A stretch of 37,196 bases of DNA. Origin: an uncultured archaeon (lineage in GTDB: Archaea; Asgardarchaeota; Lokiarchaeia; Sigyniarchaeales; SOKP01). The position numbers and the translations under genes are program-made. The notes below the pieces were generated by a model. The model did not search any database and was not told the origin of the DNA. It was given only the letters and a program-made list of their open reading frames with translations. The stretch's first letter is position 1, and each line of letters opens with the position of its first letter. The stretch spans positions 61,842 to 99,037 of the forward strand of contig CAZWEM010000012.1 in the NCBI GenBank assembly GCA_964632315.1, given 5' to 3'. This document shows, one piece after another, positions 1,619 through 35,803 of this stretch.

Positions 1619-3511
1619 TTATTCATATTCTGCATCTACTACTCCATCATCTTGACCAGTAGCTTTTCTAAATTGCTCTTCCTCGATCTCATCTTGTGTT
1701 TTTTGTTGTCCTTGAGAGCCTCCCATACCTCCTGGAGGGGCTCCTTGATAAGGTCCTTGAGCACCAGCTTGTTGGCCGTACATTTTAGCAGAGACGTCAT
1801 GTAATGCTTTTTGAAGTTCTTCGATTCCTTTTTTCATTCCAGGAATATCATCTGATTCCATCGCAGATCGTAGGCTTGAAATTTTACTTAAAATTTCAGT
1901 CTTTAGATCCCCAACTACAGCTTCGTTTTCATTCAATAATTTCTCTGTCTGATAAATAAGTGCCTCTGAATTATTTTTTGTTTCCGTTAATTCCTTGAAT
2001 TTCTTGTCTTCTTCTGCATGACGTTCAGCTTCTCTAACTTTTTGCTCAATTTCATCATCACTCATCTTTGTTGAGGCAGTAATCGTAATCGATTGACTCT
2101 TTCCAGTTCCTTTATCCTTGGCTGAAACGTTTAATATCCCATTTTGATCGATATCAAAAGTAACTTCTATTTGAGGAACACCGCGTGGAGCTGGAGGAAT
2201 TCCTGTTAAATGAAATTTACCTAAGGTAATGTTATCAGCGGCTCGTGGTCTTTCACCTTGTAATACATGAATTTCAACGGCAGGTTGGTTATCAGCAGCA
2301 GTAGAAAATACCTCGGTCTTTTTTGTAGGAATTGTGGTATTTCTATCAATTAACTTCGTAAATACTCCTCCTAATGTCTCAACACCTAATGAAAGCGGAG
2401 TTACATCTAAGAGTAGCAGATCCTCGACTTCTCCAGTTAAAACACCTCCTTGAATGGCGGCTCCTAAAGCAACACACTCCATAGGATCAATGCTTCTTTC
2501 TGGTTGTTTACCTAAGAATTCTTCGAATTTTTGTTGTACACTTGGCATTCTAGTGGGACCTCCAACTAATATTACTTTATCAACATCTCCTCGTGAAAGT
2601 CCTGCATCTCTTAAAGCTTTAGAAATCGGCGCTTCTAATCGTTTCAAAACTGGATCGATTAATTGTTCTAATTTTGCTCTAGTTAATGTCATATTCAAGT
2701 GCTTAGGCCCCTCGTTCGTAGCAGTAATGTAAGGAAGGTTTAAATCGGTTGTTATAGAAGTGGATAATTCAATTTTAGCCTGTTCCACTGCTTCTCTTAC
2801 TCGTTGCATTGCCATTGAATCCTTAGTTAAATCTACACCTTCTTGATTCTTAAATTCTTGAATTACATAGTCAGTCAGAATCTTATCCATATCTGTTCCG
2901 CCTAATTGAGTATCTCCAGCAGTTGATATCACCTCAAAAACTTGATTGTCCATCTCCATAATTGTCACATCGAATGTTCCTCCTCCAAGATCTAACACTG
3001 CAATTCTCAAATGAGCATCCTTCTTATCTAATCCGTAAGCCACAGCAGCGGCAGTAGGTTCGTTAATTAAACGACGCACGTTTAATCCCGCGATTCTTCC
3101 CGCGTCTTTCGTGGCTTGTCTTTGATTATCATTAAAGTATGCCGGTACAGTTATAATCGCATCTGTGACTTCTTCTCCTAGATATGCACTTGCGTCATCT
3201 TTGATCTTTCTCAAGATCATTGCTGAAATCTCTTGTGGTGTGTAATCCTTTCCATCTATGGTTACTTTATAGGATGTACCCATTTTTCGTTTGATTGCTG
3301 TAATAGTACGATCTGGATTGGAGATAGCTTGCCTTCTAGCAGGTTCTCCAACTAATCGTTGGCCATCCTTTGTAAAAGCGACAACAGAAGGAAATGCCTT
3401 TCCACCTAATGTATTTCCTTCAGCACTAGGAATAATTGTTGGTTTACCACCTGATAATACAGCAGCTGCAGAATTTGACGTTCCTAAGTCAATTCCAATT
3501 ATTTTTCCCAT
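1619..3511 (-). CDS. dnaK: Chaperone DnaK (Hsp70)
   Basis: [27 protein letters not shown] and [12 protein letters not shown] motifs. Lacks the ~23-aa N-domain insert, as in archaeal and Gram-positive DnaK. GGTGA RBS upstream. Confidence 0.99.
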
Positions 3512-3546
3512 TTATTTCACCTATTTAATATTTTAATTTTATATTT

Positions 3547-4227
3547 CTAATCATTTTTTGATTTAAATTTTGATATTTTTACCCCTGCGGGTTTTAAAAT
3601 TTCGTTATTAAGAAAATAACCTTTATCTATTTCTTCAATAATGGTATTTTCTGGAATGTCATCTCGTTCTTCTACCAAAAGAGCTTCATGCTTGTACGGA
3701 TCGAATTTTTCACCTTCGCTATTCATTGGTCTTATCCCCTCTTCCTGGAGCATTTTTTTAAAATTCTGTACTATAATCTTAAATCCTTTTTGGATCGACT
3801 CATCATTATGAAGAGTTTCCAATACTTTTAATGCCCGTTCTAAATCCTCAGCATGCTTAATTAACTTTCTGGCAATCTTTGCTTTAAATTGCTTTTGATT
3901 AGCCTCATTATTCCTATCTACTGATTTTTTATAATTTTCAAAATCAGCTCTCGTTCTTAATAAGGAATTCATAAATTTTTCATTTTCTTCTTCCAATTTT
4001 TTTAACTTTCTACCATCATCTTTAAGTATTTCAAGCTCTTTTTCTAGTTCTGACTTAGTTTTTTCCATCATCTCAAACTTCTTTAAAAGCATTTCATAAT
4101 TAGCAGCCATTTTCTGTAATTTTTCATATTCCTTTTTTGAAATTGTTACTTTAGCATAAGGATCTTCTAAAGATCTTCGAGCTTTAAAGAAATCATCATA
4201 AAAATCTTCAAATACCATTTTTTTCAA
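3547..4227 (-). CDS. grpE: Nucleotide exchange factor GrpE with long N-terminal coiled coil (start may be ATG at 4218)
   Basis: LRTRADFENYKK, GEKFDPYKHEAL and KGYFLNNEILKPAGVKI motifs. First gene of the dnaK operon. Confidence 0.93.
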   Translation of the reverse strand: MKKMVFEDFYDDFFKARRSLEDPYAKVTISKKEYEKLQKMAANYEMLLKKFEMMEKTKSELEKELEILKDDGRKLKKLEEENEKFMNSLLRTRADFENYKKSVDRNNEANQKQFKAKIARKLIKHAEDLERALKVLETLHNDESIQKGFKIIVQNFKKMLQEEGIRPMNSEGEKFDPYKHEALLVEERDDIPENTIIEEIDKGYFLNNEILKPAGVKISKFKSKND

Positions 4228-32574: not shown

Positions 32575-32614
32575 TGTCACAGATCTGTGACATAGTTGTG
32601 ACAAGATTTAAATA
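32575..32614 (+). promoter_or_regulatory. Actin promoter: perfect 18-bp palindrome TGTCACAGATCTGTGACA, extra TGTGACA half-site and TTTAAATA box
   Basis: Palindrome 32575-32592, third half-site 32597-32603 (11 bp after the second) and TATA-like box 32607-32614. Confidence 0.65.
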
Positions 32615-32713
32615 TTAGAATTTCTATGTATAAATCATAAAATCATTTTGTTTTATAATAAATCTTTAAATGAAAGTGTATAAATTAGAAATTTTAGCGA
32701 GTTGGGTTTTTAA

Positions 32714-33859
32714 ATGACAGTTAATGAAAGTTTAATTGGTAGAAAATCAATTGTTCTTGATAATGGCACAGGAATCTCAAAGAATGGCTATTCAGGAGAG
32801 GATCAACCACGTTCAGTCTTTCCAACAGTAATAGGAAAACCAAAATATGGGCATATTATGCCTGACGTTAAAGAATATTCGAGAGAATGGTATATTGGGG
32901 AGGAAGCAATGGAATTGAAAGGATTAATGTCTCTTCGATTTCCTATTGAACATGGAATTGTTGATGATTGGCCTTCAATGGAGCGAATATGGCATTATAC
33001 CTTTTATACTGATTTGAGAGTAGATCCTAGTGAGCACCCAGTATTATTAACAGAAGCTCCATTGAATCCAAGGTCAAATAGAGAAAAAATCGCAGAAATC
33101 ATGTTTGAGACTTTTAATGTACCTGCTTTATACATAGCAACACAAGCGATCCTTTCCCTTTATGCATCTGGGAGGACTACTGGTTGTGTCTTGGATATTG
33201 GAGACGGAGTCTCCCATATAGTGCCAATTTTTGAAGGTTTTGCTTTAAGTCATGCAATTCAAAGAGTTGATCTTGCAGGAAGAGATGTTACAAGCTACTT
33301 GCAACGATTATTAAGGCAGAAAGGATACAATTTTACTTCTTCAGCTGAGAGGGAAATTGTTAGAGACATTAAAGAAAAGTTATGTTATGTAGCCATAGAT
33401 CCTGAGAAGGAATTGATGTTATCGAAGAAAATATCTGGAATGGAAAAAAGTTATATGCTTCCCGATGGAGAAGTTATAAAAGTGGGAATTGAAAGGTTTT
33501 TAGGGCCCGAAAGTTTCTTTAATCCATCAGTCTTAGGTAAAGAATTAGATCCATTAGATGATGTGCTTGTAGACGCTATAAATGAATGCGATGTAGATTT
33601 AAGAAGAGAATTATTCAGTAATATAGTGCTTTCTGGTGGTTCTACCATGTTTCCTGGTATTAAAGAAAGATTGGCTAAAGAAATTAAAGAATTAATTCCT
33701 GAATCAGTAGATGTACGTATTCTCTCCCCACCTGAAAGAATGTATTCGGTATGGATTGGAGGGTCAATTCTTTCTTCTCTTAAAACATTCTCAAGAATGT
33801 GGATTACAAGACGGGAGTATAAAGAATTAGGACCGAGTGTGATCCATAGATGTTTTTAA
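32714..33859 (+). CDS. Eukaryote-like actin (Asgard actin, Lokiactin/ARP-like)
   Basis: [107 protein letters not shown] and GPSVIHRCF motifs. Confidence 0.97.
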
Positions 33860-33867
33860 AAAAACGG

Positions 33868-34032
33868 GTGAATTACCGAAATAAAGTAATAAAGGAAGAT
33901 CCTTTAATTGAAATTCCTCAGGAGATATTACTTGATTCTCAGATTGATTATATTAATGAAGCATTAAGTTCTATTAAATGCCTAAAAAAGATTGATAAAT
34001 TTAAAGTATTTACGAAAAATCTTGACGAATAA
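33868..34032 (+). CDS. Possible 54-aa small protein between actin and the profilin-TrmB gene
   Basis: In-frame GTG 8 nt after the actin stop, filling the gap. No motif recognised. Confidence 0.35.
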   Translation: MNYRNKVIKEDPLIEIPQEILLDSQIDYINEALSSIKCLKKIDKFKVFTKNLDE

Positions 34033-34075
34033 AACTTCATCTTTAACTTTTTTAGTAAGAATTCAAGAATAATAA

Positions 34076-35314
34076 GTGATAGTGATGAGTGGAATATTAG
34101 CATCCATCAAAAACAATTTAGAACCAGTTAAAGAAGTGATTGCCTTAGCGATAGTTGATTTTGAAGATTGTGTAATTCATTCCTCAGACAACTGGGATAT
34201 AGAGAAAGAACTTAGCACTTTAAACTCTGTTTGGGGATCTTTACAACGGGAATTAACATTATTTGGAGAAAGTTATTCGATTCTTCATAATTCTAAAGAA
34301 TTACTTATTGCAATTATTTTTGAAAAGGGAAAAGTTAAGGAGAATAAACCTAAAGAAGGGATTGTAGGGTTTAGAAATGAAGATAACAAAATATATGTGA
34401 AAATATCTGATTTTAATTCCTTACGTTCAGTGGTTGCTAATGCAGCTAGAGTTCTTACAGATATAAGGAGGAAAGAACCATATATTAAATCAGGAGAGAT
34501 TTTTAGTAAAACTAAATTCGATTTAACTCCCAAAATTTTATCTGATACATCGCATGTACTTGAAAAAGTGGGATTAAACCAATTTGGGATTAGTGAGGAT
34601 GAAGCAAAAGTCTATCTTGCCTTATTAAGAAAAGGTGAAGATGGGGATAAGGTAGGTAACTTAGACAAAGAGTTATTACTTAAAAGAACTCATATATATC
34701 GCATAATAAATAGATTAGTTGAAAAGAATTGGGTTGAGGAATTAGCCAAATTTCCTAGAGGAGCTCAATTATATGGCGCGAGACCCATTGATGAATTATT
34801 AGATAACGTTATAAAGGAAAAAGAGGAAGAAATAAAGGTGTTAAAGGGATTTAAATTAATCTTAGGTGAAAATCTCGAAAATGGATGGAATTTGGATAAT
34901 TTGGATCTCAATGATTTGAAAAAACCGTTTGATCTTGATATTAAAGAGATAACTGGATTTGAGAAGGATAACGGGATTGTTATATTTGAATATGATAGAT
35001 TGATTAAGGATGAGGAGAATTTGGACAGAGTAAAATTACGTTTGTATTCCGAGAAATTAAAACAAGAAATTAAAGAGAATGCAATATCTGATTTGGAGTA
35101 TATAGAAATAGATGAGGTTAAAATCAGTAATTATCTAGGTGCTAATATTAAAATTAAGTTTCGAAAAAATAGTAACATCTCCAATAATTTAGGATCTGAC
35201 TGGATCATTGTAGCAAAGTTAGTAGCAATCCCCATTGATAATAAAATATACGTTATTTGGGGTTCTGAACAAAAGTTTCCTTATCTATTAAATATAATTC
35301 AAAAACTAAAATAG
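34076..35314 (+). CDS. Fusion of N-terminal profilin-like domain, TrmB-type winged HTH and unknown C-terminal domain
   Basis: N-terminus: IALAIVD...IHSSDNWDI...LTLFGESYSILHNSKELLIA...GIVG. Middle: FGISEDEAKVYLALL...RTHIYRIINRLVEKNWV...YGARPIDELL. Confidence 0.75.
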   Translation: MIVMSGILASIKNNLEPVKEVIALAIVDFEDCVIHSSDNWDIEKELSTLNSVWGSLQRELTLFGESYSILHNSKELLIAIIFEKGKVKENKPKEGIVGFRNEDNKIYVKISDFNSLRSVVANAARVLTDIRRKEPYIKSGEIFSKTKFDLTPKILSDTSHVLEKVGLNQFGISEDEAKVYLALLRKGEDGDKVGNLDKELLLKRTHIYRIINRLVEKNWVEELAKFPRGAQLYGARPIDELLDNVIKEKEEEIKVLKGFKLILGENLENGWNLDNLDLNDLKKPFDLDIKEITGFEKDNGIVIFEYDRLIKDEENLDRVKLRLYSEKLKQEIKENAISDLEYIEIDEVKISNYLGANIKIKFRKNSNISNNLGSDWIIVAKLVAIPIDNKIYVIWGSEQKFPYLLNIIQKLK

Positions 35315-35332: not shown

Positions 35333-35803
35333 TTAAAAGAAACGTTCTACTTCCGGGTGCCTTTTCGCCTCGTTAAAAATGAATCCTTTAGTAATAAATG
35401 CAATCGCTAAATAACTTCCTCTCCCAGAGAGTAAAATATCTCCCTTTTTAATTCCAAAAGAATCTAAGGTTGTTTCTGGAAGGTTTATACTCATATCATC
35501 ATTAATTTTTAACCAGCAGTATTTTTTGCTTTTTATTATGATGATCTCTCCTTCAGCTAATTCATAATTTATCAAAGAAGGAAAATTGATGATAAATTCT
35601 TCAATTCTTGAATTTTTTAATATTCTAATAGAACTTAATCCAAATCCTCCTGAAGTTTTACTGCCCGAAAATAAAATCACTTCAGGATCCAACGATAATG
35701 CATACTCGTCATAAGCTTCTTTAGGGATTATAATTTTCCCTTCTTTACCAACTCTTGACCATCCAAATACATATTTCCCTCCTTTTACAATTTGAGGTGC
35801 CAT
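35333..35803 (-). CDS. Hypothetical protein with tandem AbrB/MraZ-like domains
   Basis: VGKEGKIIIPKEA and INDDMSINLPETTLDSFGIKKGDIL swapped-hairpin-like repeats. Confidence 0.6.
   Translation of the reverse strand: MAPQIVKGGKYVFGWSRVGKEGKIIIPKEAYDEYALSLDPEVILFSGSKTSGGFGLSSIRILKNSRIEEFIINFPSLINYELAEGEIIIIKSKKYCWLKINDDMSINLPETTLDSFGIKKGDILLSGRGSYLAIAFITKGFIFNEAKRHPEVERFF

Follow-up and report, generated by a model that had tools for sequence, protein, structure and literature searches.

A 37,196-nucleotide stretch of DNA from an uncultured archaeon (GTDB lineage Asgardarchaeota; Lokiarchaeia; Sigyniarchaeales; SOKP01; contig CAZWEM010000012.1, positions 61,842 to 99,037), hereafter the window, carries at positions 32575–35314 a conserved cassette that is arranged in Lokiarchaeia in the order of a candidate operator, a second lokiactin, a small protein, and a protein in which a profilin domain, a TrmB-type winged helix-turn-helix (wHTH), and a C-terminal domain (C-domain) are joined. 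The first ~135 amino acids (aa) of this last protein, hereafter the fusion, are, as judged from profile comparison and structure prediction, a genuine profilin homologue. We propose that the fusion may be a local regulator with a profilin sensor, in which the head, when bound to an actin monomer, would alter the occupancy or the action of the operator at the promoter of the spare actin. This full loop is a tentative reading, to which we assign a probability of about 0.4. The features of the cassette are as follows, with positions given in the window.

32575..32592, perfect 18-bp palindrome TGTCACAGATCTGTGACA, TGTCACA-GATC-TGTGACA (GTCAC-N6-GTGAC), candidate operator, distal half-site pair
32597..32603, + strand, third half-site TGTGACA, overlapping the expected position of the transcription factor B recognition element (BRE)
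32607..32614, + strand, TATA box TTTAAATA of the linked actin
32714..33859, + strand, actin of 381 aa, second lokiactin paralogue (the linked actin), Pfam Actin E 7.6e-129
33850..34032, + strand, small open reading frame (ORF) of 60 aa, alternative GTG start at 33868; start codon ATG overlapping the 3' end of the actin gene
34048..34053, + strand, run of six T (T6) after the small ORF and before the fusion gene, which may be a weak archaeal signal for termination or attenuation
34076..35314, + strand, fusion ORF, 412 aa from GTG
34085..34489, + strand, profilin domain of the fusion (N-domain), aa 1–135 counted from the ATG at 34085
34574..34864, + strand, TrmB-type wHTH with recognition helix KRTHIYRIINRL, followed by a long coiled-coil-type helix
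34937..35311, + strand, C-terminal alpha/beta domain of ~125 aa, no family match

The alignment of homologues starts at the ATG at 34085, and the fusion counted from there has 409 aa, as compared with 412 aa from the GTG. The first-pass annotation of the window, made from its letters, had described the fusion gene as lying directly downstream of, and co-oriented with, an actin gene. The shared orientation was confirmed, but the two genes are not strictly neighbors because a conserved small ORF (33850–34032) intervenes. The neighboring gene does encode a full actin, but it turned out to be a second copy, 83% identical to the lokiactin found on another contig.

The fusion carries a profilin domain at its N-terminus

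The fusion family comprises 62 database clusters, with nearly all members being 400–435 aa in length and with source labels of Promethearchaeota, Hermodarchaeota or Hodarchaeota. When a profile built from an alignment of 28 N-domains of the family was used in a profile search of the PDB, the matches were Loki profilin-1 (5yed/5yee) with an E value of 1.4e-14, Loki profilin-2 (5zzb) with 2.7e-14, Odin profilin (5zza_P) with 2.8e-11, and Heimdall profilin (7pbh) with 7e-9, and nothing apart from these four Asgard profilins scored under 0.1. The AlphaFold2 model of the N-domain, with a predicted local distance difference test (pLDDT) score of 87 and a predicted template modeling (TM) score (pTM) of 0.81, presented its helices (H) and strands (E) in the order H-E-E-H-E-E-E-E-E-H, which is that of the profilin fold, a 7-stranded sheet on which the N- and C-terminal helices are packed. 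A Foldseek search of the PDB with this model returned profilins throughout ranks 1–43, led by those of Loki and Odin with TM scores of 0.67–0.75. The profilin-like character that had been suggested for the first ~135 aa was, hence, borne out by both profile and Foldseek matches to Asgard profilins. A Roadblock or GAF identity, which the first-pass annotation had raised against its own assignment, was rejected, as LC7 and MglC, the Roadblock-type folds, appeared only at ranks 44–45, below the 43 profilins.

The motifs NW-D-I-S and G-x-KY-x-I are common to the N-domain and Asgard profilins. The gathering threshold of the Pfam model PF00235 was not reached by the N-domain: that of the window gave no match, and only 8 of the 28 family members touched the model, the best of them with an E value of 2.6e-4, which is short of the cut-off. 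It is common among Asgard profilins that a match to the Pfam Profilin model is missing, and the solved Loki profilins are labeled 'uncharacterized protein' in the PDB.

The winged helix is of the TrmB type, and the C-domain matches no family

The Pfam TrmB HTH matched aa 167–223 of the fusion with an E value of 5.5e-10 (39.4 bits vs a cut-off of 25.6), which corresponds to nucleotides 34574–34744, with the wing extending to ~34780, in agreement with the mid-protein winged HTH that had been located at ~34570–34850 from the letters. The model of aa 147–409 contained helices (25–67), a wing (71–86), and a further helix (89–114), all with pLDDT values of 80–90. The winged helix resembled those of archaeal wHTH regulators (PH1932, MJ223-type, MarR/TrmB-like) with a VIA Z of 11.3, and the 26-residue helix that follows it is of the type that dimerizes TrmB proteins. 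Members of the fusion family have an invariant or almost invariant recognition helix, K-R-T-H/T-I-Y-R-I-I-x-R-L. Because the wHTH begins only at about aa 165, after the profilin domain and a linker, it does not have the N-terminal position that is usual in the TrmB family.

The C-domain was modeled as beta-beta-alpha-beta-beta-alpha-beta-beta-alpha (E139–H262), preceded by a poorly predicted linker. Among the 28 members, no Pfam family matched it, including PF11495, the TrmB sugar domain. Foldseek returned nothing at E ≤ 0.001 and only weak rows of sandwich-type folds (EagT6, SciW, and PsbP) with TM scores of 0.16–0.29. Furthermore, the Atlas gave a weak DUF1795 row (TM 0.36/0.48), the scores of the feature search were ≤ 0.84, the PDB profile search gave marginal HTH rows only, and the VIA fold list was dominated by wHTH proteins. 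The possibility of a second profilin-like domain at this position was rejected, the hhalign probability vs the N-domain being 2%. A Pfam scan of the whole fusion with E up to 1 returned HTH families only, and no RPEL motifs were found.

In other genomes, paralogues of 280–305 aa that consist of the HTH and the C-domain, without the profilin head, were observed at a distance of a few kb from the cassette (L100:~2830–3640, L101, L102:4506–5390, and L110). The window's genome (G000) has no such protein and no C-domain paralogue. The recognition helix of these profilin-less paralogues is short of two basic residues (K to G and R to A), and they therefore probably read a site different from that of the fusion.

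A candidate operator is specific to the promoter of the linked actin

The three half-sites in the window are located at −139, −128, and −117 from the actin ATG, with the third being 11 bp after the second and ending 3 nt before the TATA box. A half-site of the GTGACAA type was present 1–5 nt upstream of TTTA(A/T)ATA in all of the linked promoters in which the operator was read (23/23), with one GTCACAA and one GTGACAG among them as variants. This half-site is accompanied by a partner half-site or two, at a spacing of mostly 11 bp (one helical turn), and in most lineages these form GTCAC-N6-GTGAC. No GTGACA-type motif was found in the 37 unlinked lokiactin promoters read, which have a different promoter in common. 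The TrmB-style palindrome that the first-pass annotation had pointed out in the actin promoter was, hence, found to be conserved and specific to linked-actin promoters. Its view of actin as the regulated gene was amended: the candidate target is the spare paralogue with a variant DNase-I-binding loop (D-loop), and the promoter of the main lokiactin is without the site.

The 4.45-Mb genome to which the window belongs has a single exact GTCAC-N6-GTGAC, at the linked-actin promoter. In all, five of the six genomes searched (G000, G207, G210, G279, and G135) have it once each, always at the linked-actin promoter. About one match anywhere in 4 Mb would be expected by chance, and a reversed control pattern gave 0–1 matches. 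A second exact operator, as would suit a wider regulon, was found neither in the window's genome nor in the four others. In the sixth genome (G121), the distal pair takes the variant form GTCGC-N6-GCGAC, which explains the lack of an exact match there. This variant palindrome was found at L042, L045, L050, and L052 (G077, G222, G141, and G121), with degenerate forms at L051 (G099) and L044 (G057), and the TATA-proximal GTGACAA is unchanged in the subgroup. Such a symmetric double change is as expected for a site that would be read by a dimer. No co-variation of the recognition helix with the operator variants was seen, the helix being the same in the GTCGC subgroup. In the genomes compared, the operator and the fusion are present together and absent together.

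The usual distance from an archaeal TATA box to the transcription start is ~25 nt, which implies a 5' leader of ~75–80 nt for the linked actin. Because the site touches the BRE, regulation of either sign would be possible, by occlusion of TFB (repression) or by recruitment of TFB, with activation from upstream similar to that by TrmBL1.

Some further elements were observed in the lokiactin promoters and leaders. The unlinked (main) lokiactin promoters (L061–L098; in G000, on contig C10 upstream of 18751) have a AAAAAATTTATAAA-type TATA region in common, and their leaders in several lineages contain a TCCGTTTGG-like motif ~60–70 nt before the ATG. Some linked actins (L059, L090, and L093) have a CCGTTTG-like motif in their long leaders as well. 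This may be a post-transcriptional element common to linked and unlinked actins.

The fusion is strictly linked to actin, and the cassette is chromosomal

A scan of 301 genomes of the phylum found the full-length fusion in 23 of them, all within one family (four genera), and at each of these 23 loci an actin gene is located immediately upstream on the same strand. The same order was found at three more loci (L090, L093, and L115), the last having a variant fusion with a tandem profilin head, so that the linkage to actin across genomes, as checked here, extends to 26/26 loci. The linked fusions have diverged to 35–63% identity; their actins hold 80–90%.

The cassette is accessory, with about half of the genus having it. 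Its flanks, which are common to several genera, encode an AbrB-like 156-aa protein, an HD hydrolase, an AMP-ligase, a UvrA-like protein, and S-adenosylmethionine (SAM) methyltransferases, and several cassette loci sit in contigs of 0.3–1.3 Mb. At the 14 loci inspected, no integrase, replication or plasmid genes were found within ~7 kb of the cassette. A mobile-element context was rejected, as the flanks are conserved and of the housekeeping type. Because of the flanks conserved across genera and the lack of mobile-element genes, the cassette is a chromosomal accessory unit that is vertically inherited and often lost, and not a plasmid or a provirus.

The linked actin is a second lokiactin that differs mainly in the D-loop region

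The actin of the cassette is genuine, matching eukaryotic actins with an E value of ~1e-155, and is 82–83% identical to the main lokiactin, which G000 carries on contig C10. Genomes with the fusion have two lokiactins, the sole exception being one 84%-complete genome that shows one, whereas the fusion-less genomes covered by both scans (n=30) have one each. In the tree, 36 unlinked actins formed one very tight clade, with support of 100 in the Shimodaira-Hasegawa-like approximate likelihood ratio test (SH-aLRT) and branches of 0–0.02, and the 24 linked actins fell outside this clade, with branches of 0.05–0.13. The mean column entropy was 0.44 for the linked actins as compared with 0.04 for the unlinked ones, indicating that the former are about ten times more variable.

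At positions 4, 10, 42, 46, 47, 50, 67, 75, and 121, the linked and unlinked sets have no residue in common. These fixed differences cluster in the D-loop region (positions 42–53, by alignment to solved actins) and the N-terminus, which suggests a change in filament contacts and not in the face that binds profilin. Whereas the D-loop region of the linked actin varies, its barbed-end and C-terminal parts are conserved.

A possible actin-sensing regulator and its rivals

In the mechanism that we propose, the fusion would be a dedicated local regulator of the cassette with the linked-actin promoter as its only target. It would dimerize through the helix after the winged helix and occupy the 11-bp-phased GTGACA half-sites that abut the BRE and the TATA box of the linked actin. 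An actin monomer on the profilin head would then set its operator occupancy or its effect on the recruitment of TBP/TFB, and the output of the spare D-loop-variant actin would, as a result, track the state of the actin pool. Across the fusion family, the invariant recognition helix matches the invariant half-site. Three of the four outcomes that the first-pass annotation had named as refuting its idea were examined, and none of them speaks against it. In a more far-reaching form, which we consider doubtful, the Asgard profilin head would read free lokiactin of either paralogue and switch the D-loop-variant isoform from a single operator. This would amount to an actin-to-gene feedback and isoform switch that predates eukaryotes and is similar to MRTF-SRF without being akin to it.

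Several points weigh against the proposal of an actin-sensing head. As in TrmB proteins, sensing might actually take place in the C-domain, with the profilin head having another role. The N-domain is only 14–20% identical to solved Asgard profilins in the Foldseek structural alignment, and it is the fastest-evolving part of the fusion, with a mean column identity of 47% vs 57% for the C-part. Profilin-fold domains can bind lipids or peptides instead of actin. It is also to be considered that 14 of 25 loci have an oligo-T run of 7–13 T immediately ahead of the fusion gene, where the window has T6, so that actin and the fusion may not be on one transcript. Production of the regulator may, hence, depend on read-through or on a promoter that belongs to the fusion gene itself. 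Furthermore, binding to phosphatidylinositol 4,5-bisphosphate (PIP2) has been reported for Asgard profilins (PMC8410842). An explanation in line with such points is that the fusion regulates the linked actin locally, as an ordinary member of the TrmB family. Its head would then have a non-actin ligand (candidates being the small cassette protein, a proline-rich peptide, and a phosphoinositide-like lipid) or serve in oligomerization only, or the signal could enter through the C-domain. We regard this explanation as rather unlikely, although it agrees with the usual sensing of TrmB proteins through their C-terminal domain, with the conservation of a C-domain here, and with the paralogues, reduced to the HTH and the C-domain, that other genomes have within a few kb of the cassette. 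The divergence of the N-domain from actin-binding profilins, the many unrelated fusion partners of the profilin domain, and the binding of PIP2 and, in some cases, polyproline by Asgard profilins (PMC8410842) also fit it. However, the strict, lineage-wide adjacency to actin would be hard to explain if actin were not the partner, the beta4 'KY-x-I' core of the solved actin-binding Asgard profilins is retained in the N-domain, and the profilin-less paralogue, with its altered recognition helix, probably reads another site.

The two other explanations give the DNA-binding part a different task. In one of them, which we consider improbable, the palindrome would be read by another transcription factor, and the fusion would be mainly a profilin that uses its wHTH for dimerization or for non-specific tethering to the nucleoid. 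It is true that wHTH domains can mediate protein contacts and that there are many TrmB/MarR-type regulators to choose from, with 4–30 first-look candidates per genome, but the perfect co-occurrence of the site and the fusion, the invariance of the DNA-reading residues of the recognition helix across proteins diverged to 35–63%, and the presence of one site per genome, as expected for a dedicated local regulator, all argue against this explanation. The other, for which we see very little chance, is a DNA-positioning cassette similar to ParMRC or AlfAB, made from a genuine actin, in which the phased repeats would be a centromere-like site and the fusion an adaptor that couples the site to growing barbed ends of linked-actin filaments and auto-represses the promoter like ParR. 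The layout is that of type II partition loci, the site is unique per genome with half-sites phased by one helical turn, the cassette is accessory, being present in about half of the genus, and the linked actin is fast-evolving with a different D-loop. On the other hand, the chromosomal neighborhood is conserved across genera and free of integrase, replication or plasmid genes, there are merely 2–3 half-sites, and the linked actin, being 82–83% identical to the main lokiactin, would probably co-polymerize with it. Profilin, moreover, prefers monomers over filament ends.

Relation to known systems and significance

The N-domain is homologous by profile to the stand-alone Asgard profilins (5yed/5yee, 5zzb, 5zza, and 7pbh/6yrr) and has the same fold. 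Those known profilins are single-domain proteins of ~120–150 aa that act on actin dynamics, whereas here the domain heads a DNA-binding protein of 409 aa. With the TrmB family (TrmB, TrmBL1/Tgr, and TrmBL2 of Thermococcales; PF01978), the fusion has the winged helix and the following long helix in common. It differs from that family in the central position of the wHTH, the extra profilin head, and the lack of a PF11495 match in the C-domain, and its presumed target is actin instead of a sugar-metabolism gene. The glycolytic motif of Thermococcales is TATCAC-N5-GTGATA, which the candidate operator GTCAC-N6-GTGAC resembles, and the candidate operator is located just upstream of the BRE and the TATA box, like activating TrmBL1 sites.

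MRTF detects actin by means of RPEL motifs and works through SRF. The first-pass annotation had compared the locus with this system, and the proposed logic would indeed be the same, with an actin-monomer-binding element on a regulator of actin-related genes. The likeness is, however, functional at most, because only HTH families match the fusion in Pfam; there is no homology, the profilin and a prokaryote-type wHTH are here directly joined in one protein, and only one promoter makes up the presumed regulon. In ParMRC of R1 and AlfAB of pLS32, promoter repeats are followed by an actin-family gene and then by a DNA-binding adaptor with an actin-end-binding domain. The gene order of the cassette is alike, and its cis site is unique, but the context is chromosomal, the actin is genuine, the half-sites (2–3 at linked promoters, mostly 11 bp apart) are fewer than in ParMRC centromeres, and the adaptor is unrelated to ParR or AlfB.

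The regulation of Asgard actin is currently discussed at the protein level only, in terms of profilins and gelsolins, and recent work handles Asgard profilins as stand-alone proteins (PMC13716822, PMC8410842). In the literature searched, we found no published description of the fusion, of a second lokiactin with its own operator or of the small cassette protein. If the profilin head binds actin, the fusion would be the first prokaryotic transcription factor with a cytoskeletal monomer-binding domain as its sensor, and the cassette, with a single operator, a single actin, and a single regulator, would represent a compact and fully defined system. It could be tested using a small number of recombinant proteins together with a DNA fragment of 60 bp. 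It is also of importance that two actin isoforms, with the D-loop as their main difference, are maintained under distinct promoters in some Lokiarchaeia.

The profilin domain in other architectures

An exhaustive profile search for the profilin domain gave 135 cluster representatives, in which the domain is stand-alone or is joined to a tail of ~80 aa, a leucine carboxyl methyltransferase (LCM)-type methyltransferase, Ras-family GTPases (with the profilin at the C-terminus), leucine-rich repeats (LRR) or wHTH domains. P0192 and P0209 have several wHTH/TrmB domains with the profilin C-terminal, the P0192 gene not being adjacent to an actin gene, and P0102 combines a tandem profilin with TrmB, again behind actin. 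Because the profilin domain recurs with wHTH in other orders, in tandem, and with unrelated partners, it behaves as a portable partner-binding module, found on GTPases, LRR proteins, a methyltransferase, and DNA-binding domains. The repeated fusions of profilin and DNA-binding domains in different orders support a real functional coupling and are silent on what the domain binds. Database proteins with the profilin domain in other architectures are P0110, P0118, P0151, P0154, P0164, P0192, and P0209.

Two further profilin-domain proteins were observed in G000. One, on contig C14 (L004:616–1938, − strand), is a 440-aa protein with an N-terminal profilin (E 4.8e-14 to the N-domain profile), followed by a leucine carboxyl methyltransferase domain (PF04072, E 2.7e-32). 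It has homologues of 441–457 aa in other genomes of the family and is a candidate actin-directed or actin-guided protein methyltransferase. The other, on contig C17 (L002:1501–2130, + strand), is a 209-aa profilin with a C-terminal tail of ~80 aa, which, among the stand-alone profilins of G000, is most closely related to the fused N-domain (E 1.2e-18), and tailed profilins of ~205 aa are present in nearly every genome of the family.

The small cassette protein and the neighboring genes

The small ORF of the window is 38% identical over 50 aa to the small ORF of L012, which occupies the same place between actin and the fusion. It is a degenerate yet recognizable copy of a family of small proteins of 45–75 aa, found between the two genes in 15 of 25 loci, once in duplicate, and also at L115. 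The family, which amounts to 18 database clusters, is characterized by an N-terminal RIKIIDGIPCIVLD and a C-terminal helix of the LLDELKKKF type, and no Pfam match was obtained for the small protein.

Just downstream of the cassette, the window encodes a 156-aa protein without a Pfam match (35333–35803, − strand), followed by an HD-domain protein. Homologues of the 156-aa protein (cluster c5) are found near the cassette in three genera of the family, and in some genomes a MazE/AbrB-like protein of 152 aa lies beside it.

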